NCBI GenBank assembly: GCA_038322885.1 | Contig: JBBQGK010000005.1 | Location: 1,508-65,507, forward strand | Length of the DNA: 64,000 nucleotides | Direction of reading: 5' to 3' | Source of the DNA: Bacteriovoracales bacterium | GTDB lineage: Bacteria; Bdellovibrionota; Bacteriovoracia; Bacteriovoracales; Bacteriovoracaceae | Shown here: positions 1,470 through 60,855 of the stretch, one piece after another | Numbering within the stretch: position 1 is the stretch's first letter | How the letters are laid out: each line of letters opens with the position of its first letter | Notes under the pieces: generated by a model | What the model was told of the DNA's origin: nothing | The model's database searches: none | Seen by the model: the letters and a program-made list of their open reading frames with translations, nothing else | Position numbers and translations under genes: made by a program

Positions 1470-4400
1470 TTATTGGCCGAAACCTGGCGGAACACAGTAG
1501 ACGTGATTATTCCATTTCACACCAGCATCATAGATAGAACCGACTGAGCCAGTTTCAGCATTATTATCTACAGCGTCGGTGCGGTAGTTAAAACGTCTCA
1601 CGGTTGAGAGTTGATCCGCTGGTTTATAGCCGCCATTCAATAGAGGAATAGGAAGCTTGTGAATCGCAACACCAGTCATGGACGTCCCTGAACAACAGAG
1701 ATTTTTCTGGGCCACCATGAGCTTCACCTGAGCCGCATCTTTAATGTATCCAGTCGCCGAATCATAAGCTGAGTCTGAAAGTCCGCGCCCTTCAGAAGAG
1801 ACGTAACGATTAAGATACACCGTCACATCCGTAAAGTCCGGCAAACAGCAACGAAGGGGACCGTTCACATTAGCGAGGTTTCCGGTACAACACTGAGATG
1901 CGGAGGTCGTACTCGGAACTTCCTGGTTTGAAGGGATACAACAGTTAAACTCACTTTCAGAAAAAATCTTCTTGAGTCCACCACCAGTCATGTCAAATTT
2001 AGAGTACGAGGCAGCAGAGTAGTAACGATTGAGAGAACCATCTTTAAAGTCGGCCAGGAGATCGGTGACTGGAGTAGTGACAAAAGTCTGGCTCGCATCT
2101 CCGACTTTGATCGAGGCCATCGGAAGATTCGTGGCCTGGGTATTTTGATTGTCATCTACGAGCTGGTGAATCTCATCATCAGTTTTAACCGCGACCTGAG
2201 GGATGCCGATTAATTCTAAAGAGCCGGCCCATGTTAAATATTTGTCTTCTTCAGCCGGAGTAATGGAGCGGATTTCACAAGATGCATTGGCATAATTATC
2301 AGGGTCACACTCAAAGGCGTTATCCGTGACGATGTTAGTTGTTTGCTGGTTCCACGTAATATTTTTGAAAACACCTTTATCAAGAGTCTGAGTCTTGCTC
2401 TTTGCAAAGGCATGACCTCCGCCATTTTCAGAAGCAAAACTTCGCACCCAATTCTGGGTACAGCAAGTTCTTTGGTTCACAGTATCAAGAGTCTTGAATT
2501 GAGATTGGATTTTATTCCAACGACTGGAAAAATCCGTCGCAACAAGAGAGAGGGCATAGGACTTAGTCGTGGAAACTTGAGCGACGTCACAGGTTACTTT
2601 ATCAAAAGTCGTGTTCACTCGCGAATATCGGTTGAAAGAATTTACAGGCGAATTCACTCCGGCAACTCTTACCGTGTCCACGTCGCACCAGCGATGATTG
2701 GTATTATCCGTCTGAGTAAAGACTGTCATCGTGTTGCCAATATCACGGCAGCAAACATTTTTCTTGGGATCAAAAGTAGGATTTAAGACACCTGGGGCGG
2801 TATATTTGAATGCTGGGTTTCCGCAAATGAGTTCTTCTCCCCAGTATTTCACTTCAGCTGCATTTAGGAGTGTGGAGAGATCTGACGATTTAACTTTAGT
2901 TGCAATGGTCTTTGAGGGAGCGCATTCGAAATCACTAAAGCAACTTGCCCCGGGAGCTCTCAGGCACATATTCCTTTGGTATCCAATCGCCGAGATTTTA
3001 CTCCCGGCGGTAGAGCTAAATATTCCCAAAGCAGTAAGAGGGGATAAATCTAAGAGGTTAGAAGATAAGTTTTGTGAAATGGAATATTGGGTAAGCACAG
3101 GATCATTCAATGCCAGATCATAATTCTGCATCGAAAGCCCTGAGGCATCCACAGCAGGACAGGCATTCATGTAATTTGCATTCTGCAGACCTGACATCGT
3201 AGGACCTGCCCCCATTATTTTATCTGAGGAGTCAGTGCGTGTTGAAGGTGTTCTCGAGTTCAGATCAAAAAGACTCGTTGAGCTTGCGACGTCTTTACCA
3301 GGAATACAAACCGAGAGAACATTATTTGAAGATAAACTTGTCGTCGCGGCCACAGGCGCCGTTTTTGTTCCGTAGAAATCGAAAGGACGGCCAAGAATTC
3401 TTGCTCCAAGGCCCACGAGATCTGAATCCACACTCGCGGCCGCTGCAGAGTTTTGAGCAAGCGGAGTATTCGCGAAGCGAGAAATTCGATCATTAAATTT
3501 AGCGCCACTCGTGAGCGGCACACAGGCATTATTAAAAGAGCAGGTGAGTGTTCCGAGGATGGAAGATCCATTAAATGTTGTTCCCGATGCTGAGGCCAGA
3601 TTATTTAAACATGGAGCTCCACGTCCGCGATACACGCATCTTTTGGCCTGGCCACTTGTTCCACCAACAATCGAAGCGAGAGTTTTTGTGATAGAGCCAA
3701 CTGTCTCTGCGCCATTAGCATCGAACTGAGGAACACTCGTTAAAAGGCCAGAGATGTTTTGGCAGGTGTAATCATATCCAAGCTGACTGAAACAATCTTT
3801 ATCATTTGAACAGTAGTGGGACTTCTGGCATTCAGCCCCGTCAGTTGCTGAGTCAAGAGTTGGAACGGTTGTGTTTCCGACGGCCTCTGAAACTGAAACG
3901 CTAAAATTGGTATCAACGCTCACATCACCATAGTATGCATTTACGGCCAGAAAAAGTTTTGAAGTTGCAGCTTTAATTTGTCTTTGATTTCCAATTGAGA
4001 ACCACGTGACTCCGTCAAATGAACCAATCAATGAACCGTAATCAAATCCATACCAGTCACGTGAGTATCCATTAGCGAAAAGAAAGTGTTGTCCAGAGAG
4101 CCTCATTTGTCTCTGGGCCTGGGCCGTGGCACCAGTGGTGTGAGTCCAAGGGATCATGGTTGCTGGTACAAAACAAGCGCGCCCAAAAAGCAGGTCATCG
4201 CTACGATAAAGAGACGTGCTGTTTATTCGAGTGCTGCTATAGGCATCAGGAGTGTAGCCCCCTCCCATGCCTTTAATGTTTTGAGGGAAGATTTTTTGAA
4301 GACTACTGTAATAATCAGTTCCGCAGGTCGTACAACCTGAGAATGATCCCGAATTCGTATAAATGTTGTAAAGTTGGTTTTTCTTAACCGACACCAGCTT

Positions 4401-6395
4401 TGCTGGTTTTGCGACGAAGGATCCAGTTGTTGCAAAAGAGCCATAAATTTCGTTGAAGCCCGTGAACGTTGAAACGTTAGAGGGCTTAAGGACATCATTA
4501 TTTAAGTAACTAAAGGCGGTCATTTCCTGAGCGGGAGCACCAGATGTACTTTCATCATAACTCACACCATTCACATCATAGTACCGATGAGGAACATTTT
4601 TATTCGAAACATAAACAGTTTGGTTTGCTGGAGGAGTTGTCGCCACGGCCGTTGGATAAACACACTCGTAATTGACAAGTGATCCAGACGAATTGAGCTG
4701 AGGAGTAAGGTTACATTTATCATTCGTACCACAAACGCACATTGTATTCACCGCGGCCTGAGCTGCACCTCTGAGACCAAAAAGGGAAGACACATTACTC
4801 GTCACAAAATAGGTAATCTCGACTTGCTGATTTTGGTAAAGAGGGTAACTAGCCGAAAAAATAATTCGATTAGGACCCGTGGCCTTGGACCAGGTTGTTG
4901 TATCCTCGGGTACGACAATCCCACCAATCTTCACGACAAGACTCGCTCCAGATGAGGTATCAGCGTAAGCCGGCAAGGTGAAAGTTTTAGAGCTATTGTG
5001 CCACATTGTAGAGAGCGTATCTGTCGATCCCTGAACAAAGGTCTTAATACATTTAGCGAGTGTCGTTCCCACTTTTACGCACGATCCGTCCACTTTGTAT
5101 GTCAGATACAAATTATCATCTTTTGCATTTGAGGGAAGAGTGGCGGTGATATTTACACTTTGGGTAGAAGTCAGGTTGTCATTGTTGGTTCCACTAATGA
5201 AACTTGCATTAACGATAGGAGGATTCTTCAAATCATAAAGAGTTGATCCACCGTAAACGATCTTAACAATATTATTTGCATACTCGCCGGTGTAGTTAGG
5301 ATTGAGGGCCGAGAAGTTAATATCGTCGTTGTAGCCCAGGCTCGATGCTGAGAAAGTTCCAGGGATAGAAGCCGATGCACCTGGAAACTTGACGGTACAA
5401 TAGGAAAATTCACCGTCTACTTTATTTAAGCACTGGTAGAGCTGAGTGTATTCCATGATTCGAACTGAAGCCTCATACGCGGCCTGCTCGCTCGTAATCC
5501 CACCATTATTTCCCGCGGTCGTCGATCCGGAACTACTAGGGCACACGTAATAGAATTGCGGATATAAAACATAGCGACTTGGGTTCACACGAACGTCTTC
5601 TTGAGCTGATGTGAAGCCTGCTGCTGTTAAGGCCGAGGCCCTTACGGCACCATCTTTTGAACAGACTCCATCGAGGCAACAATCAAACCCGCGGGCCTTG
5701 CAGGAAGTATCTTCCACGCAGCTCGATCCACCTGAGGTTAGTGTTGCAGAGATACTTAATGTCAAAGCACCCATTGAGATCGTCGGGACTTCTTGACCAT
5801 TAACAAAGAAGAGATGAATCGCAGAACTTTTTACTGAAGAACTACAGTTTGTGCATAATTGATTCAGGCTGAAACTCGCACTAGGAGAACTCGCCCCAGT
5901 GAATAAGCCATTAGTGAGATTGTAGTTTAAGCAATCATTTTGGTTGGCCGTATCGTTATTCGGTTCCGCGAGGAGAAAAAACTCTGTCGTCTTCGCTACG
6001 ACATCAGTGAAGGAGTTTGGTTTCGCTGAAATAATCAGGAAGCGGTCCTGGCCCGAGGTATAATTATACTTAGCAACGATACAAAATTTTGTTGTGTTAG
6101 GTAATTTTCTTACATACTGAGAAAGAGCGAGCCCGCGAATCATGAACGAATCAGAAAAATTCAGAGGCAGAGACAGGTCACCCTGAGTTTGCACTGAGCT
6201 TTGTTGAATGAATGTGCCAGATAATGGATAGGCCGGTTCAGAGTAGGATGAATTGTTGGTGTTTCCGGTATTGGCATTGGTTGAATCTCCAATCCCTACG
6301 CGAGAACTTGTCGGTGTGCATGAAACGATGGCCAGCAAAAATGCCAGTGCAATAAATGAAGCTTTGAATGGTTTCAAAAATATCGAGTTCAACAT
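1470..6395 (-). CDS. giant Cys-rich, Ser/Thr-rich lipoprotein (1641 aa), function unknown
   Basis: Lipobox LAIVS-C; about 50 Cys by hand count, many as CC pairs or small C-x(5-6)-C modules; GAGGGA RBS. Confidence 0.8.
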   Translation of the reverse strand: MLNSIFLKPFKASFIALAFLLAIVSCTPTSSRVGIGDSTNANTGNTNNSSYSEPAYPLSGTFIQQSSVQTQGDLSLPLNFSDSFMIRGLALSQYVRKLPNTTKFCIVAKYNYTSGQDRFLIISAKPNSFTDVVAKTTEFFLLAEPNNDTANQNDCLNYNLTNGLFTGASSPSASFSLNQLCTNCSSSVKSSAIHLFFVNGQEVPTISMGALTLSISATLTSGGSSCVEDTSCKARGFDCCLDGVCSKDGAVRASALTAAGFTSAQEDVRVNPSRYVLYPQFYYVCPSSSGSTTAGNNGGITSEQAAYEASVRIMEYTQLYQCLNKVDGEFSYCTVKFPGASASIPGTFSASSLGYNDDINFSALNPNYTGEYANNIVKIVYGGSTLYDLKNPPIVNASFISGTNNDNLTSTQSVNITATLPSNAKDDNLYLTYKVDGSCVKVGTTLAKCIKTFVQGSTDTLSTMWHNSSKTFTLPAYADTSSGASLVVKIGGIVVPEDTTTWSKATGPNRIIFSASYPLYQNQQVEITYFVTSNVSSLFGLRGAAQAAVNTMCVCGTNDKCNLTPQLNSSGSLVNYECVYPTAVATTPPANQTVYVSNKNVPHRYYDVNGVSYDESTSGAPAQEMTAFSYLNNDVLKPSNVSTFTGFNEIYGSFATTGSFVAKPAKLVSVKKNQLYNIYTNSGSFSGCTTCGTDYYSSLQKIFPQNIKGMGGGYTPDAYSSTRINSTSLYRSDDLLFGRACFVPATMIPWTHTTGATAQAQRQMRLSGQHFLFANGYSRDWYGFDYGSLIGSFDGVTWFSIGNQRQIKAATSKLFLAVNAYYGDVSVDTNFSVSVSEAVGNTTVPTLDSATDGAECQKSHYCSNDKDCFSQLGYDYTCQNISGLLTSVPQFDANGAETVGSITKTLASIVGGTSGQAKRCVYRGRGAPCLNNLASASGTTFNGSSILGTLTCSFNNACVPLTSGAKFNDRISRFANTPLAQNSAAAASVDSDLVGLGARILGRPFDFYGTKTAPVAATTSLSSNNVLSVCIPGKDVASSTSLFDLNSRTPSTRTDSSDKIMGAGPTMSGLQNANYMNACPAVDASGLSMQNYDLALNDPVLTQYSISQNLSSNLLDLSPLTALGIFSSTAGSKISAIGYQRNMCLRAPGASCFSDFECAPSKTIATKVKSSDLSTLLNAAEVKYWGEELICGNPAFKYTAPGVLNPTFDPKKNVCCRDIGNTMTVFTQTDNTNHRWCDVDTVRVAGVNSPVNSFNRYSRVNTTFDKVTCDVAQVSTTKSYALSLVATDFSSRWNKIQSQFKTLDTVNQRTCCTQNWVRSFASENGGGHAFAKSKTQTLDKGVFKNITWNQQTTNIVTDNAFECDPDNYANASCEIRSITPAEEDKYLTWAGSLELIGIPQVAVKTDDEIHQLVDDNQNTQATNLPMASIKVGDASQTFVTTPVTDLLADFKDGSLNRYYSAASYSKFDMTGGGLKKIFSESEFNCCIPSNQEVPSTTSASQCCTGNLANVNGPLRCCLPDFTDVTVYLNRYVSSEGRGLSDSAYDSATGYIKDAAQVKLMVAQKNLCCSGTSMTGVAIHKLPIPLLNGGYKPADQLSTVRRFNYRTDAVDNNAETGSVGSIYDAGVKWNNHVYCVPPGFGQ

Positions 6396-7881: not shown

Positions 7882-9444
7882 ATGCCTAAGAAGTATCAAT
7901 TCGAGCTTCCCTTTGATGTGGATCTCGATAAACATGTAAAAAAAGTCTATCCGGAGATCCGGGAATTTCGAACCCTTTCGAAGAGTCTTGATGCGCGTGG
8001 TGCTCCACGAGGCAAAAAACCAATTTATCTCTACATTCTAGATGCCCTTATAACGAAAGATGATCAATATCCTCCTCCGGAAATGCTGCCGCAGTTTCCT
8101 CCACTAAAGCACAGACCGATTATCATCGGCGCAGGTCCGGGTGGATTATTTTGTGCTGTTCGTTTGGCCGAATATGGCGTTCCAAGTCTCATTTTTGAGC
8201 GCGGGGACCAAGCTTCAAAGCGTATGTTAAAGATCGCTAAATTTTGGCGCTACGGAGAATTCGATGAAGAAACAAACGTCTGCTACGGCGAAGGCGGAGC
8301 AGGTTTATTCTCAGACGGAAAACTCATTACAAGAATTAAATCGGAACTCGTCTCTTACGTGATGGAAAAATTTGTCATGTTTGGGGCACCACCTGAAACA
8401 GCTTACGAATCCAACCCCCACTTAGGTTCAAATAAAATCAGAGTCATCATCACGCAGATTTCAAACTGGCTCCGAAGCAAGAATTGCGAAATCATCTACA
8501 ACGCAAAGATCACAGAAATCTTGGTGGATGGAGAACGGGCCGTCGGTGTAAAGCTTGAAGATGGTCGCGTTTTTCACTCTGATCACGTGGTTTTGGCGAC
8601 GGGCCACTCGGCACAGGATCTGTACCAACATTTAGAAAACATAAAAGTCGCGATGAAGCCCAAAGATTTCGCGGTCGGTGTTCGCATTGAGCATCCTCGC
8701 CGCATGATCGATGCTCTTCAACACGGGAAATTTTCTGAGGCCTGTGAAATGGGTTCGGCCCGTTATCGCCTGAGTTATCATGACAAATGGACCGATCACG
8801 GCGTTTATAGCTTTTGCATGTGCCCAGGTGGTTATGTCCTTTCATCCGGAACTGAGGCCAATGGAATTGTCGTCAACGGCATGAGTAACTACGCCCGCAA
8901 CTCACCGTGGTCAAATTCTGCGATCGTCGTTTCTGTTAAAGTTGAAAAAGACATCGAGGACCGGGACATGATGGCAGGTTTACGCTTTCAGCATGAAATT
9001 GAACAAAAGGCTTATGCTCTTTCAAAAGAAAAGGCCACTGGCCGCGAATTACCCGCGATGACGGTCAAAGAATTTATGGATGGGAAGTTAAATCATCGTC
9101 CTCTTCCAAAAACCTCGGCACCATCGGGTTTATTTAAAACCGATCTCCATGAAATTTTCCCAGCATTTATTATTGAAAACTTAAAGAAGGGCCTGAGCGA
9201 ATTTAATCGTGATCTTCCAGGATTTATCAGCGATGAAGCCGTTTTGATAGCTCCAGAAACTCGAACTTCCGCACCCTTAACGATTCTTCGGGACAAAAAA
9301 TCTCTGGTTTCACTTTCCCATAGTGGTCTATATCCCTGCGGTGAGGGTGCAGGTTATGCCGGCGGGATTACTTCGGCCGCTGTCGATGGCGTAAAATGCG
9401 CCCTGAGTATTCTTCAACATGAGGGATATTTACCGCAAGTTTAA
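7882..9444 (+). CDS. NAD(P)/FAD-dependent oxidoreductase (COG2509-like)
   Basis: IIGAGPGGL, GEGGAGLFSDGKL, FCMCPGG, GEGAGYAGGITSAAVDG. Confidence 0.88.
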   Translation: MPKKYQFELPFDVDLDKHVKKVYPEIREFRTLSKSLDARGAPRGKKPIYLYILDALITKDDQYPPPEMLPQFPPLKHRPIIIGAGPGGLFCAVRLAEYGVPSLIFERGDQASKRMLKIAKFWRYGEFDEETNVCYGEGGAGLFSDGKLITRIKSELVSYVMEKFVMFGAPPETAYESNPHLGSNKIRVIITQISNWLRSKNCEIIYNAKITEILVDGERAVGVKLEDGRVFHSDHVVLATGHSAQDLYQHLENIKVAMKPKDFAVGVRIEHPRRMIDALQHGKFSEACEMGSARYRLSYHDKWTDHGVYSFCMCPGGYVLSSGTEANGIVVNGMSNYARNSPWSNSAIVVSVKVEKDIEDRDMMAGLRFQHEIEQKAYALSKEKATGRELPAMTVKEFMDGKLNHRPLPKTSAPSGLFKTDLHEIFPAFIIENLKKGLSEFNRDLPGFISDEAVLIAPETRTSAPLTILRDKKSLVSLSHSGLYPCGEGAGYAGGITSAAVDGVKCALSILQHEGYLPQV

Positions 9445-9507
9445 CTCGTCAAAAAGCACCGTTTCCATTAATGTCACTTCATTCAAAAAGACCAAAGGTA
9501 ATCAAGC

Positions 9508-11319
9508 ATGAATTTAAAGAACATTGCTATCGTAGCTCACGTCGATCACGGGAAAACAACCCTCGTCGATCAACTCTTAAGACAATCTGGCCTTTTCTCG
9601 GCCCATGAAGCTCTCACTGAGCGCGTGATGGATTCTGGCGATCTTGAAAAAGAACGCGGGATCACAATTAAAGCTAAAAACTGTTCGATTAACTGGAAAG
9701 GCACAAAAATTAACCTTCTCGATACTCCCGGACACGCCGATTTTGGTGGAGAAGTGGAACGTTCTTTGATGATGGTTGATGGAATTCTCCTTCTCGTTGA
9801 TGCCTCTGAGGGTCCTCTTCCTCAGACTCGTTTCGTTCTTGGTAAGGCACTTGCTCAAGGAATCCGCGTTGCGGTTTTCATCAACAAGGTTGACCGCGCC
9901 GATGAACGTATTGATGAAGTAAAAAATGAAGTTGAAGATCTTTTGCTTGAGCTCGCAACGATGGCCGGTAATGAAGAACTCGATATGGATATCGCATTCT
10001 ATTACGGCTCGGGTCGTACAGGTTACGCTTCAACAGATAAGAATGCTCGCGAAGGGTCTTTGACTCCGATGCTTGATTTCTTGGTGAGTGATTACTATCC
10101 ACCTCCGAAAGTTGATAAAGATGGCCCGGCACAACTTCTTGTGACGAACCTTTCTTACTCAAATTACCTCGGTGCTTTGATGGTTGGTCGAATTCAGCGT
10201 GGCGTGATCCAAAACAACAAACAGTTGATGTGGATTGGCCGCGATGACAAACCTAAAACATTTAAGGTTACCTCTCTTCAAATTTTTTCTGGTCTTGGTA
10301 TGGCGATTGTTGATTCAGCTGAAGCTGGAGAAATCGTCATTATTTCTGGATTCGAAAACGGGGACATCGGGGACACCCTCTGTGCTCCTGATAAACCTGA
10401 AGTTCTTCCACGTATTGAAGTAGAACCACCTACAGTATCAGTTCAGGTTTCTGTTAATACGGGACCTCTATCTGGTCGTGAAGGGGAGTATCTCACTTCT
10501 CGCCGTTTGGAAGAGTTTTTGATCGATGCTATTCGCAAAAACGTTTCACTTAAATACACCAACACTGATGATCCGAAAGTGTTCATCCTAAAAGCTCGTG
10601 GAGAGTTGCAAGTTGCTGTTGTATTCGAAGAAATTCGTCGTGAAGGGTTTGAGCTTATGATTGCTCGACCGCAAGTTATTACGAAAGAAGTTGATGGCGT
10701 CTTGATGGAACCATTTGAGCGCGTCGTTCTCGACGTTCCAAATGAATCGACTGGTGCAATCACAGAAAAAATGGCGATTCGGAAAGGTAAGATGGAGGCC
10801 ATGTCTCCTTTCGGTGAAGGCCGCACTCGAATGGAATTTACTGTTCCATCACGTGGACTCATTGGTTACCGTTCAACGTTCTTGACCGACACTAAAGGCC
10901 AGGGACTCATGTCATCTTACTTCGTTGGTTACGAGCCGTTCGTAGGAAAAATGCTCGCCCGTCAAAACGGTGCTCTCATTTCCGATCGTACGGGTAAAAT
11001 TACTCCTTACGCTCTCTTCAACCTTCTCGCCTCTGGAAGACAATTTGTTCTTCCGGGTGAAACGTCTTACGAAGGTCAGGTTGTTGGTGAGCACACACGG
11101 CCAAACGACTTGAACATCAACGTTTGCCGCGAAAAACATTTGACCTCTGTTCGTACTGCTGGAAAAGATGAAAACATTATTCTTCCACCAATCCCGCACA
11201 GAACTCTGGACTGGGCGCTGGACTGGATTGATGAAGATGAATGGGTTGAAGTCACTCCACAAAGTATCCGAGTCCGCAAAAAAGAACTCGTCACAACAAA
11301 ACGTTCGGTCATTCGATAG
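9508..11319 (+). CDS. typA: translational GTPase TypA/BipA
   Basis: AHVDHGKTT, ERGITI, DTPGHADFGGEVER, C-terminal EVTPQSIRVRK. Confidence 0.97.
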   Translation: MNLKNIAIVAHVDHGKTTLVDQLLRQSGLFSAHEALTERVMDSGDLEKERGITIKAKNCSINWKGTKINLLDTPGHADFGGEVERSLMMVDGILLLVDASEGPLPQTRFVLGKALAQGIRVAVFINKVDRADERIDEVKNEVEDLLLELATMAGNEELDMDIAFYYGSGRTGYASTDKNAREGSLTPMLDFLVSDYYPPPKVDKDGPAQLLVTNLSYSNYLGALMVGRIQRGVIQNNKQLMWIGRDDKPKTFKVTSLQIFSGLGMAIVDSAEAGEIVIISGFENGDIGDTLCAPDKPEVLPRIEVEPPTVSVQVSVNTGPLSGREGEYLTSRRLEEFLIDAIRKNVSLKYTNTDDPKVFILKARGELQVAVVFEEIRREGFELMIARPQVITKEVDGVLMEPFERVVLDVPNESTGAITEKMAIRKGKMEAMSPFGEGRTRMEFTVPSRGLIGYRSTFLTDTKGQGLMSSYFVGYEPFVGKMLARQNGALISDRTGKITPYALFNLLASGRQFVLPGETSYEGQVVGEHTRPNDLNINVCREKHLTSVRTAGKDENIILPPIPHRTLDWALDWIDEDEWVEVTPQSIRVRKKELVTTKRSVIR

Positions 11320-11327
11320 TAAAATCA

Positions 11328-11354
11328 GGGAGGTCTATGACCTCCCTTTTTTTT
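11328..11354 (+). terminator. Rho-independent terminator after typA
   Basis: GGGAGGTC-TAT-GACCTCCC followed by T8. Confidence 0.9.
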
Positions 11355-11407
11355 GCCTAAATATCAGACATCTTTAGAGACACTTAAATATTTCCACCAC
11401 ATTAACT

Positions 11408-11416
11408 TGCTATAAT
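11408..11416 (+). promoter_or_regulatory. extended -10 sigma70 promoter
   Basis: TG-C-TATAAT 28 nt upstream of the small ORF at 11444; no clear -35. Confidence 0.55.
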
Positions 11417-11443
11417 TTATAAGAGTAATTCAAGGAGGATTCT

Positions 11444-11533
11444 ATGATCACATTTCTCATCTTGACCGGACTGGGCGTTGGGATTTATCTCGGCATTAGT
11501 CGCAAAAATTCAAATACATCTCTTCCAAAGTAG
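11444..11533 (+). CDS. small single-TM protein (29 aa), not in ORF track
   Basis: MITFLILTGLGVGIYLGISRKNSNTSLPK; AAGGAGG RBS immediately upstream; stop 5 nt before next ATG. Confidence 0.7.
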   Translation: MITFLILTGLGVGIYLGISRKNSNTSLPK

Positions 11534-11538
11534 GTTTT

Positions 11539-11865
11539 ATGAAAATCTTTATCTTTTCTACACTCATCCTAGGATTCGTCGCCATGAATGCCAAAGGTGT
11601 AACAAGCTATGCTCCGAATGATGGAATGAATTCGCCTGGAACATTTAATTCCAAGAGCACAACAGCAACAAGATCAAGCGATAAGGCGGGAATGCAAATT
11701 CCGATAGGAGAAGATCAGGTTAGCCCGCAGAAAATGAACTCATCTCCCAATCCCGCTCCTACCAATGATGAGATTGGGGACTCTTCCTACGGCGAAACGA
11801 TTGTAAAACCCTTTAAACAGTCTCAGGAAGCCAAACCAAATAAAAAGACCCTACCAAAACAGTAG
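11539..11865 (+). CDS. secreted low-complexity hypothetical protein
   Basis: Signal peptide MKIFIFSTLILGFVAMNA; Pro/Ser/Asn-rich mature part. Confidence 0.75.
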   Translation: MKIFIFSTLILGFVAMNAKGVTSYAPNDGMNSPGTFNSKSTTATRSSDKAGMQIPIGEDQVSPQKMNSSPNPAPTNDEIGDSSYGETIVKPFKQSQEAKPNKKTLPKQ

Positions 11866-57476: not shown

Positions 57477-58868
57477 CTAAGATTTTTTGACCACTCCATA
57501 CATCAGCAAACAGCGAGCACGATTTTTCTCGTAGCTTACAATGGGAGCTGGATAATCAGTGACCTTCAATGGATCAGGTCGATGAATTTCTTTTTTCGAG
57601 AGCCCTGCCAGTTCGGGGCACCATACACGAATGAAATCTCCATCTTCGTCGAACTTTTCACTCTGAGTGTACGGGTTAAAAATACGAAAGTAGGGTTGAG
57701 CGTCACAACCGGAGCTCGATGACCATTGCCATCCACCGTTGTTGGCCGCGAGATCAAAATCGAGAAGATTCTGTGCGAAATATTCTTCGCCAAGTCTCCA
57801 ATCAACTAAAAGTATTTTACATAAAAACGAAGCGACAATCATTCTCAATCGATTGTGCATCATTCCGGTAGCGTTAAAACAGCGCATGGTTGCGTCCACA
57901 ATGGGAAATCCTGTTTCTCCCTCACACCATGCTTTAAAGTCGTTGCTTGAACCAAGCCACTTGATCTCATCGTACTCGGGCTTGAAAGCAACTTTTTCAA
58001 GCTGTGGATTTGCATCGAGGATCATCTGATAAAAATCACGCCAGATAAGTTCTGAAAGCCAGGTTTTCGCTCCCTCGTCAGTGTGGTGAAGCGAGGCCTT
58101 GACCATCTCACGGATGGAAAGATTTCCATGACGAATATAAACCGAGAGGAGAGACGTTCCATCAACGGCCGGAAAGTTTCGGGCCTCTTTATAGTCACTC
58201 ATAAGTTGGTCAAAATCTTTGAGACGCTTAATCGCGTGGGATCTTCCTCCGCTCAAGAGGGCAGGAGTTCTCTCAAAGCCTAGTTCTTTGTGCCAGTCGT
58301 GATCGAGAATATTCTTGGGATTTTTACATTTTGCAATTTTTTTGAGGTCACATTGAAAGTCAGAAAGTATTTTTCCCTGCGACGAAAAAACTTCGAGCCA
58401 TCGATTTTTATATGGAGTGAAAACTTTGTAGATACTCTCACTACCAGTTAAGACCTCATGCTTTTCATAGAACACACTATCTTTAAATTGTTCAAACTCA
58501 AATCCCAAGGCCTTGAGTTTTTTTCCAATGAGTCCATCTCTCTTCTTCGCCATTGGCTCATAATCTCTATTGGCGACGACTCTCTTAACTTTTAATTTTT
58601 CAGCAAGCTCTGGAATTTCGATTACCGGATCGCCATAGAGGATGTGGATAGACGATCCCCGCTTTTGAAGTTCTTCTTCTATTTCTTCAAGGGATTCGAT
58701 GATAAAAGTTAGGCGTCTATCACTTTTTGAATTCAATTTTTTTAAGATGTGAGGATCAAAAACAAATACGAGGTGAGTCTCTCCATCTTGGGTCGCATTT
58801 GAAAGGGCAGCGTGATCGTGAAGTCGAAGATCCCGACGGATCCAGCATAGTGAACTCATAGCTGACAT
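57477..58868 (-). CDS. phrB: deoxyribodipyrimidine (CPD) photolyase
   Basis: WIRRDLRLHDH, TSLLSVY, ELIWRDFY, MHNRLRMIVASFL, NNGGWQW, FRIFNP. Confidence 0.93.
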   Translation of the reverse strand: MSAMSSLCWIRRDLRLHDHAALSNATQDGETHLVFVFDPHILKKLNSKSDRRLTFIIESLEEIEEELQKRGSSIHILYGDPVIEIPELAEKLKVKRVVANRDYEPMAKKRDGLIGKKLKALGFEFEQFKDSVFYEKHEVLTGSESIYKVFTPYKNRWLEVFSSQGKILSDFQCDLKKIAKCKNPKNILDHDWHKELGFERTPALLSGGRSHAIKRLKDFDQLMSDYKEARNFPAVDGTSLLSVYIRHGNLSIREMVKASLHHTDEGAKTWLSELIWRDFYQMILDANPQLEKVAFKPEYDEIKWLGSSNDFKAWCEGETGFPIVDATMRCFNATGMMHNRLRMIVASFLCKILLVDWRLGEEYFAQNLLDFDLAANNGGWQWSSSSGCDAQPYFRIFNPYTQSEKFDEDGDFIRVWCPELAGLSKKEIHRPDPLKVTDYPAPIVSYEKNRARCLLMYGVVKKS

Positions 58869-58913
58869 TATTTCAGAAAAAAGACGCGCAGGCCTTGGTA
58901 AAGAGAGATTTGT

Positions 58914-59444
58914 CTAAGTTAAGTCGAAGACGAGATGGTTTTTGACCATTTCGTTAAAGCGGCTCGTGAGTTTTGAGTCTACAAAATTCTTATTGGATTG
59001 TGGGCCATCTTCAAGGTTTTCTAGCAGATTTAACGCTACCTCATCGAGTTCGACACTCCTAACCTTATCGTTTTTGTCTCTGAATAAGCATAAAACATGA
59101 GGCCGTTCATAAACTTCGACTTTTCCTTGGGCCGCATCGGCGAGCATCTTCATCACGTCGAATTCAAGAGACAAAAATAAGGCGGTCGGATTCAGGTGCA
59201 CACCAGGTTTCACGGGAAAGGGAAGGGAGGATGTTTTTGATTCAAAAAGCGCCATTTCGTAAAAGGCGAGTTCAAAAAGATACGGTGGGCAGTCACCTTC
59301 TTCAGCTTTTTGTTGAAGATATTCGGGAAAAGAAATATCTATGAAGTCGGTTTCATATTCTTTAATCACGATCGGCCAGTCGAGATCTGAAAAGATGGCG
59401 AGGCTAGGAAACATTTTTTGATAATCGTTCATAGACCCCGCCAA
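58914..59444 (-). CDS. DUF2063/HvfC-like protein (MNIO partner-like), N-terminally short
   Basis: FPEYL...PPYLFELAFYEMA and VHLNPTALFLSLEFDV match my recollection of the DUF2063/NGO1945 pattern. Confidence 0.6.
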   Translation of the reverse strand: MAGSMNDYQKMFPSLAIFSDLDWPIVIKEYETDFIDISFPEYLQQKAEEGDCPPYLFELAFYEMALFESKTSSLPFPVKPGVHLNPTALFLSLEFDVMKMLADAAQGKVEVYERPHVLCLFRDKNDKVRSVELDEVALNLLENLEDGPQSNKNFVDSKLTSRFNEMVKNHLVFDLT

Positions 59445-59456
59445 ATTTTGATCTAT

Positions 59457-59657
59457 TTATTTCTTCTTTTCTTCTTTTTCGTGTTCAGCTTTTTCTTCAG
59501 CAGCTGATTCATGCTTTTCATGACCATCATGATCTTTCATTTCTTCAGTTTTTGTATGGCCTTTTCCTTCATGTTTTTTGTGACCTTTTTTGTGTTCAGC
59601 AAAAGCACTTGAAGCGGCGAGAGTAAGCACGAGAGCAAAAGCGATAGCAAATTTCAT
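59457..59657 (-). CDS. small secreted His/Lys/Glu-rich peptide
   Basis: Signal peptide ending AFA; 8 His in the 46-aa mature part, no Cys; AAGGAG RBS. Confidence 0.8.
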   Translation of the reverse strand: MKFAIAFALVLTLAASSAFAEHKKGHKKHEGKGHTKTEEMKDHDGHEKHESAAEEKAEHEKEEKKK

Positions 59658-59704
59658 AAAACTCCTTATATTGTTTGGGACATTGACTTTTCGGAATAAT
59701 ACCC

Positions 59705-60004
59705 ATGAAATTAAGAATTATGAACGATTTTCCACAAGAAAAATATATTGAGCTTGAGAACAATCCTTACTTGCTTGGTCGGGTAGTTATCCATCATGTT
59801 AAGAATGATTATCATTGTGAGATAGACATCATTCACAAAGAATCTCATAAGATTTTTCGTCATGTGGAGATTGTTTATAATCAGCAATCCTCAGAAGAAG
59901 CACTTATCACGGGTGTCCAAAGATTGCGGGTCTTTTTAGAAAGGGTTGAAGCTGAGAGTGTCGGCGAGGATGTGACTGATGATAAAGAGAAGATTTTACA
60001 CTAA
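59705..60004 (+). CDS. hypothetical protein
   Basis: 99-aa ORF filling the gap; no motif recognised. Confidence 0.7.
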   Translation: MKLRIMNDFPQEKYIELENNPYLLGRVVIHHVKNDYHCEIDIIHKESHKIFRHVEIVYNQQSSEEALITGVQRLRVFLERVEAESVGEDVTDDKEKILH

Positions 60005-60057
60005 GAGTATTTTGGTGGGATAATGAGCTCGGGCGACTTAGGACGAGGACGCAAGGC

Positions 60058-60855
60058 TTGATACAATTAGAATTTTTTCCAAGGCTCGAACTTAAAGGTT
60101 TATCTGACTTTCAAAAGTTGGAGTCTGCTCAGTTGCCTCTCTCTGATAAAAAACTCATCATCCAGATCGCAGATTTTTTTCAAACTCCTAAGGCAAACGA
60201 CGTGATCCGCCGCCAGCATGCGGGCATTTTAGATAAGATCCTAGGGGTCAGAGTTCGTTACATTGAAGAAATGATGATTGCTGAAGCGCGAGGATTTGAG
60301 CCCGATGGAACTCATGAAACCTGGGGGCCAAAACTCCACGAGGGTGCGCAAACTTGGGTGGGACTTGATATCCAAACTTTGCAAACTCCGTACTCAGAAT
60401 GTCTTCGTATTCTTCAACTCTTAAAGATTAAGCCCTATCAGCACGTCGTAGATTTAGGAGCGGCCTATGGCCGCATGGGAATCGTGATTGGTGGGCTCTA
60501 TATCAAAAATTCATTCACTGGATTTGAGTACGTGAAGTCAAGAGTGGACGAAGGTAATCGTGTCTATAGAGAACTCGGGATGTCTCGATCTAAACTTATT
60601 ACTCAGGATCTTTTTGATAAAAATTTCGAGATGCCAGAGGCCGATATTTACTTTATCTACGACTACGGACAAGTAGAGCATATCGACCACACCCTCAAGC
60701 AACTCGAGGCTGTGGCACAGAAAAGACCCATCAAGGTTGTTGTTCGAGGAAAATTCACGAAGCAAATCATCGCAGACAGGCACCCATGGCTTGATCTTCA
60801 GTATGTGGGTAAACTGGAAGAGCTCTTTTCGATTTATTCCGCTTTCATCGCCTGA
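60058..60855 (+). CDS. class I SAM-dependent methyltransferase
   Basis: VVDLGAAYGRMG, TGFEY, QDLF, YFIYDY. Confidence 0.8.
   Translation: MIQLEFFPRLELKGLSDFQKLESAQLPLSDKKLIIQIADFFQTPKANDVIRRQHAGILDKILGVRVRYIEEMMIAEARGFEPDGTHETWGPKLHEGAQTWVGLDIQTLQTPYSECLRILQLLKIKPYQHVVDLGAAYGRMGIVIGGLYIKNSFTGFEYVKSRVDEGNRVYRELGMSRSKLITQDLFDKNFEMPEADIYFIYDYGQVEHIDHTLKQLEAVAQKRPIKVVVRGKFTKQIIADRHPWLDLQYVGKLEELFSIYSAFIA

Follow-up and report, generated by a model that had tools for sequence, protein, structure and literature searches.

What becomes of the partner protein of a peptide-modifying enzyme once the enzyme itself has gone? To our knowledge, the partners of MNIOs (oxidative enzymes that depend on multinuclear non-haem iron), namely HvfC, BufC, TglI and MbnC, are understood solely as subunits of enzyme complexes; MNIO partners bind the precursor peptide, and HvfC also tunes the iron cofactor. 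The question is raised by a locus at positions 57,477–59,657 of a 64,000-nt stretch (hereafter the window) of the Bacteriovoracales contig JBBQGK010000005.1, which comes from a predatory bacterium of the genus Peredibacter, family Bacteriovoracaceae. Two genes of this locus are at issue.

pep66: 59657..59457, minus strand; a 66-aa small secreted peptide with a Sec signal, Cys-free and rich in His, Lys and Glu; a reduced variant (8 His).
p176: 59444..58914, minus strand; 176 aa when read from a TTG (172 aa if the ATG at 59432 is used); an N-terminally truncated HvfC/PME-type 1 paralogue without a signal peptide.

A first-pass annotation of the window had described the pair as a derived cassette for a peptide made by the ribosome and modified after translation (RiPP), lacking its MNIO gene. 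The analysis reported here gives a probability of about 0.5 to the reading that pep66 and p176 descend from an MNIO RiPP cassette of the oxazolin/bufferin type and now have no enzyme, p176 acting as the escort of a metal-binding peptide.

p176 is a real homologue of HvfC, NGO1945 and TglI. Its residues 86–153 matched PF22106 (NGO1945_C, the C-terminal domain of DUF2063 proteins, of the RiPP recognition element (RRE) type) with 34.2 bits against a cut-off of 27, and the NCBIfam HvfC profile NF050145 was matched over positions 81–202 of 237 (E=4.8e-13). An AlphaFold2 model built on 33 homologues reached a pLDDT of 93.5. When this model was compared with the PDB by Foldseek, the only significant matches were NGO1945 (3dee, E=6e-7, TM 0.69) and, as second best, TglI of the TglHI holoenzyme (8hi7_A/8hci_A, E~5e-4). 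A sequence-profile search of the PDB with the p176 family gave nothing significant, neither a DNA-binding signal nor one of another family emerged for p176 from Pfam, NCBIfam and PDB-profile searches, and PqqD-type models had no sequence match to it. There was a weak match of p176, and of an orthologue (p188) discussed below, to the N-terminus of SbtM, in which an HvfC-like domain is fused to a radical S-adenosylmethionine (SAM) maturase. p176 thus has the fold of HvfC from the hvf oxazolin system of Haemophilus influenzae, of PME-type 1 proteins, of BufC and of NGO1945 (3dee), with detectable homology and an RRE-type NGO1945_C domain. As with HvfC-type partners, its gene directly follows that of a small protein with a Sec signal, and its product is predicted to be cytoplasmic.

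The first-pass description of p176 as a DUF2063/HvfC-like protein is therefore upheld as to homology by the PF22106, HvfC-profile and Foldseek matches and has to be corrected as to completeness, two N-terminal helices being absent. When 1.84 billion representative proteins were searched with a profile, 45 matched the p176 family: the strong ones were 160–190 aa long, and the weak ones were DUF2063-positive proteins of 205–252 aa that aligned from about residue 45. Multiple alignment showed that the ~45 residues (two helices) with which full-length partners begin are absent from p176. Compared with the model of one of these, HvfC219, it lacks helix 1 (3–15), nearly all of helix 2 (23–48) and a short helix (78–82), and keeps the remaining helices, which form the second half of the helical domain, together with the whole beta/alpha RRE part. 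FPEYL, PPYLFELAFYEMA and VHLNPT all occur in p176, and 35 columns of its alignment are invariant. A near-invariant His116 is specific to the short clade; Cys119 is also present in full-length partners.

Unlike HvfC-type partners, then, p176 lacks the first ~45 residues and a 9-residue helix, has no match to the DUF2063 model and falls below the HvfC cut-off, its NF050145 score of 49.5 bits being far under the 142 required. It also differs from them in having no cognate MNIO (most genomes have none), a Cys-free neighbouring peptide and a GDC motif. The DUF2063 model itself (PF09836), searched through the whole genome, matched only the partner protein of a cluster on another contig, C113. Because p176 has neither the complete DUF2063 domain nor the family score nor a cognate MNIO, it is not counted as a regular PME-type 1 member.

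Might p176 serve an MNIO encoded elsewhere in the same genome? A whole-genome six-frame search with PF05114 gave one match, on contig C113, and none on the contig of the window, in agreement with the earlier remark that no DUF692 gene lies in the window. The search for DUF692 that the first-pass annotation had proposed thus yielded a single cluster, made up of a BufA2-type precursor and a BufB-type MNIO, both above their NCBIfam cut-offs, and a DUF2063 partner of its own. The presence of that partner, to which p176 showed no significant similarity, makes it unlikely that p176 serves the MNIO of its own genome. In this cluster (L004:5982–7835) the BufA2 precursor has 102 aa and the DUF2063 partner is divergent; no DoxX gene follows, and response-regulator genes lie downstream, one with a DNA-binding output domain and one receiver-Hpt-like. 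A radical SAM enzyme of the SbtM type, considered as an alternative, was not found in this genome.

Across the genus, MNIO genes (PF05114) were present in 17 of 51 genomes, or 13 of the 26 of high quality, and absent from 34; p176 occurs without any MNIO in two closed genomes (G011 and G032) and in two rated 100% complete (G034 and G003). We consider the MNIO independence of p176 well supported. The suggestion that a distant enzyme works with it is unlikely to hold in general, since MNIO genes are missing from two thirds of the Peredibacter genomes searched. Passages of a survey of the MNIO landscape describe stand-alone precursors and short PME-type 2 proteins encoded beside MNIO genes, and in those passages no partner maintained without any MNIO is found (PMC12452194).

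The second member of the pair is a peptide of unusual composition. The Sec signal of pep66, as read from the sequence, has an n-region, an h-region and an AFA↓E cleavage site, and the mature part contains 8 His (17%), 13 Lys, 12 Glu and 0 Cys. This His content is not a matter of chance composition, because pep66 belongs to a small conserved family in whose other members 14 His positions are nearly invariant. At 20 of 26 distinct loci, genomes without MNIO included, a signal-peptide protein of 66–104 aa with 12–23 His ends 2–55 nt before the p176 orthologue on the same strand, and the pairing is present in the deepest branches of the short clade. Conservation of the pair in genomes lacking DUF692 had been set beforehand as a test of the proposal, and it was observed. 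On the other points on which the first-pass annotation had staked its case, p176 has an HvfC-like structure, the two genes are linked in other genomes and p176 was not found to serve a canonical cluster.

The family motif reads HDKEHxHV-(5)-DHxH-(3)-HHxxHDHKAHHPxH, usually with 14 His and mostly with a poly-Lys end, and its conservation is high even between species with no more than ~40–60% identity in p176. Mature peptides had no Cys in the window or in any aligned relative; where a Cys occurs it is in the signal peptide or the lipobox (L009). About 30 clusters of the peptide were found in 5.8 billion proteins. No BufA or HvfA model matched it, nor did any Pfam or NCBIfam family model, and a literature search found nothing on the family. 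Like the HvfA, BufA1/2 and Buf_EGKCG/captophorin precursors, it is a small protein exported by Sec whose gene lies immediately upstream of that of a partner; it also has a metal-homeostasis neighbourhood and repeated metal-ligand motifs, the module being doubled in some relatives (three, L024, L044 and L068). It resembles the Cys-containing precursors of Bacteriovoracaceae in its poly-Lys C-terminal tail, also present in those of L041 and L044. Unlike oxazolin and bufferin precursors (EGKCG repeats, 4 Cys in DUF2282 proteins, 6/12 Cys), however, it offers His, Asp and Glu as ligands, and because it has no Cys it contains no substrate for thiooxazole formation. Its His-rich composition and the chemistry to be expected of it recall Hpn, the N-terminus of ZinT and RcnB; this likeness is compositional only, without homology or a Pfam match. 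One member of the peptide family carries the source label RcnB.

pep66 itself is a reduced form. In the family alignment it has lost 6 of the 14 His and lacks the HDKEH and HDHKAHHP blocks. Its nearest metagenomic relative (L062, p176 89% identical) has the same reduced peptide as an intact open reading frame (ORF), and the next relative (p176 80% identical) has the canonical peptide. For this reason the string HEGKGH, taken earlier as an echo of EGKCG, is on the evidence of these relatives a recent peculiarity of the window's subclade; it occurs there only, and the family motif is the one given above. A second, canonical copy of the peptide was found on contig C83 (L046:6341–6568, minus strand; 75 aa, 14 His, HDKEHHH...HDHKAHHPDH) with no p176-like gene adjoining. 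Near it are genes for a Fur-family regulator with a run of seven His (9231–9674), a TonB receptor with ZnuD as its best-matching model (9717–11774), an M36-like secreted protease, RibA and a major facilitator superfamily transporter. Four other genomes checked had the p176-linked copy only. The canonical copy would thus have moved to a Fur-family/ZnuD-like locus in this genome, and its context suggests a link to metal starvation, possibly of Zn.

Where does the short form come from? Of 36 other Peredibacter genomes 34 have it, as against none of 24 taken from other families in the phylum, and among 69 sampled genera of the family it is confined to this one. In NCBI the P. starrii orthologue is labelled 'HvfC family peptide modification chaperone'. 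In the tree, the short clade forms a monophyletic group (support 100/99) that is sister (94/92) to the MNIO-linked, full-length HvfC205 and HvfC219 and nested among other full-length partners. These nearest full-length relatives, MNIO-linked HvfC proteins of the same family, are 31–38% identical to p176. HvfC219 is encoded within a cluster of Cys-containing precursor, MNIO and HvfC in the sister genus. HvfC205 is encoded on a metagenomic contig, L044, whose gene order can be compared with that of the window once the flanking genes of the latter are given.

photolyase: 58868..57477, minus strand; 463 aa, a class I cyclobutane pyrimidine dimer photolyase (PF00875 and PF03441; NCBIfam PRK10674, E=7e-117).
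orf99: 59705..60004, plus strand, with a likely start at 59720 (the second ATG); a small His-containing protein without a family, divergent from pep66.
mt265: 60058..60855, plus strand; a class I SAM-methyltransferase-like protein (weak matches), the last gene of the divergent unit and given for context only.

L044 carries orf275, mt265, a CopZ-like gene and orf99, divergent from the His-rich peptide gene, p188 (the p176 orthologue) and a gene for an extracytoplasmic function sigma factor. There follow a precursor gene with EKSCG, EKKCG and EKTCG motifs, an MNIO gene, HvfC205, an anti-sigma gene and, further on, a photolyase remnant, sdhC and sdhA; the SdhA is 91% identical to that of the window. 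The contig is from the Logan assembly of SRR30681645 and Peredibacter-like; pair and cassette lie at 2387–5835, the MNIO scores as BufB, and the photolyase remnant has 118 aa with an internal deletion. L044 therefore places the pair beside a complete EKxCG cassette inside the same frame, from sdh and photolyase to orf99 and mt265, as is seen in the window. This arrangement is consistent with a duplication of partner and precursor alongside the parent cassette, which was lost later: on L044 the pair adjoins a complete Cys-type cassette in the chromosomal frame of the window. Descent from a Cys-type MNIO cassette, as the first-pass annotation had supposed, appears well supported by the tree and by L044. 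The p176 gene had no stops in 35 genomes, and its pairwise ratio of nonsynonymous to synonymous substitution rates (dN/dS) was ~0.2, with or without the peptide, where dS was unsaturated; most pairs were saturated, and the figure is a rough one. The substitution pattern indicates that purifying selection maintains the short clade in genomes with an MNIO and in genomes without one.

How might such a pair work? The best guide is TglHI, in which loops of the enzyme insert into grooves formed by alpha1–3 and alpha7–8 of the TglI N-domain; deletion of TglI residues 1–15 or of alpha3 abolishes the complex, and the C-terminal RRE of TglI binds the substrate without touching the enzyme (PMC10880893). 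p176 has the same plan, a helical N-domain followed by an RRE C-domain, whereas TglI has the alpha1–3 that it needs to hold TglH; moreover, unlike the pep66 family, TglA has no signal peptide, and Tgl chemistry is directed at Cys. HvfC by itself binds HvfA, which HvfB does not (PMC11252979), and bufferin precursors are recognised at least partly through their core, the signal peptide being dispensable for modification (PMC11626156). Loss of the two N-terminal helices would have removed the enzyme-docking surface and left the RRE-type peptide-binding domain in place. Since the docking helices are lost and that domain is kept, p176 may be a stand-alone cytoplasmic binder, an escort or holdase, of the very His-rich prepeptide, acting without an enzyme. 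Until Sec takes over, p176 would shield the prepeptide from metal in the cytoplasm and leave it fit for export. After signal cleavage the unmodified peptide would serve in the periplasm as a ligand or buffer for metal (Zn, Cu or Ni), its His residues taking the part that MNIO-made thiooxazoles have in the parent systems. The CopZ-like neighbour present in most relatives (see below) and the Fur/ZnuD-like context of the second peptide copy point to Cu or Zn. The discrete RRE protein PqqD offers a parallel, as a stand-alone, enzyme-free polypeptide that binds a small precursor, which for p176 is our inference; PqqD differs in passing its peptide on to a radical SAM enzyme of the same operon, and p176 has no linked enzyme.

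Several observations weigh against this escort role. The most conserved block of p176, FPEYLQQK...GDCPPYLFELAxYE (residues 38–65), lies in the retained helical domain and not in the RRE. Within it an invariant GDC (residues 51–53), including an invariant Cys52, is specific to the short clade, and such a block would fit a retained protein–protein or metal site as well as peptide binding. Six of 26 genomes show a clean deletion of the peptide gene, with 55–123 nt left between p176 and orf99 and p176 intact. The canonical peptide was found nowhere in the five of these peptide-less genomes that were searched, the same query having found it in 5/5 control genomes, and about four independent peptide losses can be placed on the p176 tree. 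Some function of p176 must therefore be independent of this peptide. The L044 arrangement is a single metagenomic contig, and among the 51 genus genomes the best match to its MNIO was 40% identical, no species representative having that type. Synteny within one genus is by itself weak evidence for a functional link, and binding, export, metal and expression are all steps that we infer. The earlier idea of the partner as a peptide chaperone accordingly survives in part: the pairing at 20 of 26 loci speaks for it, and because p176 is kept, with similar dN/dS, in six peptide-less genomes, it cannot be solely the dedicated chaperone of the adjacent peptide.

Some of these observations fit an exaptation of p176. 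By that account the protein has taken on a job independent of the adjacent peptide (another client, regulation, or metal handling through its clade-specific Cys and His), and adjacency is a relic. The peptide-less genomes with an intact p176 gene, the repeated losses, the absence of the family motif from the adjacent peptide in the window's subclade, and the invariant GDC and near-invariant H116/C119, which are found in the short clade only or more often there than elsewhere, all fit it. It leaves less room for the ancestral and tight pairing, deepest branches included, for the binding of the adjacent precursor by the homologous domain of characterised relatives, and for the lack of any DNA-binding or other family signal in p176, and we regard it as doubtful. 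An adaptor role, in which p176 still presents the His-rich prepeptide to an enzyme encoded elsewhere (a BufB-type MNIO or a non-MNIO enzyme) and the peptide is a true RiPP, appears unlikely. MNIOs act on residues other than Cys too, HvfC-like domains are also found fused to radical SAM maturases (the p176 and p188 matches to SbtM), and the L044 pair abuts an MNIO cassette. In addition, the retained helical half is the most conserved part of p176 and includes, by position, the last two helices before the RRE; the equivalent alpha7–8 groove of TglI holds an enzyme loop (PMC10880893). Yet 34 of 51 genus genomes, closed ones included, have no MNIO, this genome has no SbtM, its MNIO has its own partner, and the N-terminal helices required for TglI docking are gone. 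The only conserved enzyme-like neighbour, mt265, was rejected as the missing modifying enzyme and is not a specific partner, because it belongs to a phylum-wide family with paralogues that occurs also in genera lacking p176. A bolder form of the adaptor account, in which p176 belongs to an unrecognised non-MNIO route, with an unlinked enzyme modifying His, Asp or Lys in a new RiPP class of the oxazolin/bufferin lineage, we rate as quite improbable.

Decay might also be considered: the enzyme has disappeared, the partner has been shortened, the peptide in the window has 6 of 14 His fewer, and the CopZ-like neighbour has been lost here, as though the locus were the remnant of a RiPP cassette without present function. 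Set against this are the genus-wide occurrence of p176, its freedom from stops in 35 genomes and dN/dS of ~0.2, 35 invariant columns and a very confident fold, a peptide motif that is highly conserved in spite of the low identity of the p176 proteins, and a reduced peptide that is still an intact ORF, common to a relative. A functionless remnant is therefore very improbable. We retain the escort reading at the probability given at the outset. That p176 is, in addition, the first PME/RRE-type partner to be maintained by selection in an escort role without an enzyme, its cargo being a secreted metallopeptide that stays unmodified, is tentative, and somewhat short of an even chance.

The locus itself remains to be described in outline. 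The three ORFs pep66, p176 and photolyase lie where the first-pass annotation had put them, all on the minus strand and, as read from the TTG, with gaps of 12 nt between pep66 and p176 and 45 nt between p176 and photolyase. The real start of p176 is probably the ATG at 59432, which would give 172 aa and a gap of 24 nt to pep66, because close homologues (170–174 aa) all begin at the residue matching M5 and a purine-rich, Shine–Dalgarno-like stretch (GGCGGGG) precedes that ATG. One further feature lies between the divergent genes.

divergent control region pep66/orf99: 59658..59724; a promoter-like site and the conserved TTGACTTTTCGG.

A promoter scan placed the promoter-like site upstream of pep66 at 59724–59696 on the minus strand (TTCATA-17-TATTAT). 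TTGACTTTTCGG, at 59683–59694 on the plus strand, is kept in 16 of 18 aligned loci, including loci without the peptide gene, and is probably not a metal-regulator box but the -35 element of the promoter of orf99. Its TTTCGG extension is conserved as well and is not accounted for by the -35 assignment.

The order p176, orf99, mt265 is retained in all 16 long loci. In 15 of them a 65-aa heavy-metal-associated (HMA) gene with an MTCGHC motif, CopZ-like by NCBIfam, lies between orf99 and mt265; it is absent from the window and from the closest species relative, G007, where the two genes are 53 nt apart (60005–60057 in the window). orf99, which had no match in Pfam, NCBIfam or the PDB, is a genus-conserved protein of ~90 aa with several conserved His. 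Comparison of mt265 with solved structures gave nothing usable.

The photolyase, which the first-pass annotation had regarded as a co-expressed stress gene of the module, was rejected as a member. It abuts p176 only in the subclade that includes the window, and the link is one of local synteny; in other relatives 0.8–5.5 kb separates the two, and some of the intervening genes are on the opposite strand. In 11 of the 16 long loci the interval is ~5.5 kb and holds a 1465-aa Fic-domain gene and an opposite-strand gene. In G011 (L031:597–4994) and about ten other genomes the interval is filled by this Fic/DOC-domain protein and two small genes, which are absent from the window. No terminator-like site was found in a scan of the window on the minus strand of the 45-nt gap between p176 and photolyase. 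With one promoter-like site upstream of pep66 and no terminator before the photolyase, co-transcription of photolyase and p176 is possible in the window, and would not be general.

The short clade indicates that a partner protein can outlive its enzyme: it is selected genus-wide, mostly without an MNIO, and keeps its link with a secreted peptide that has His in place of the modified Cys. For RREs associated with DUF2063, a recognition motif could not be mapped (PMC12710340). If p176 is indeed an escort, the pair would be a natural minimal system for what the PME RRE-type domain recognises in Sec-type precursors, and would document a route from a RiPP metallophore to an unmodified metallopeptide. 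It would also be a warning for genome mining, in that an 'HvfC family' annotation does not imply a RiPP cluster.

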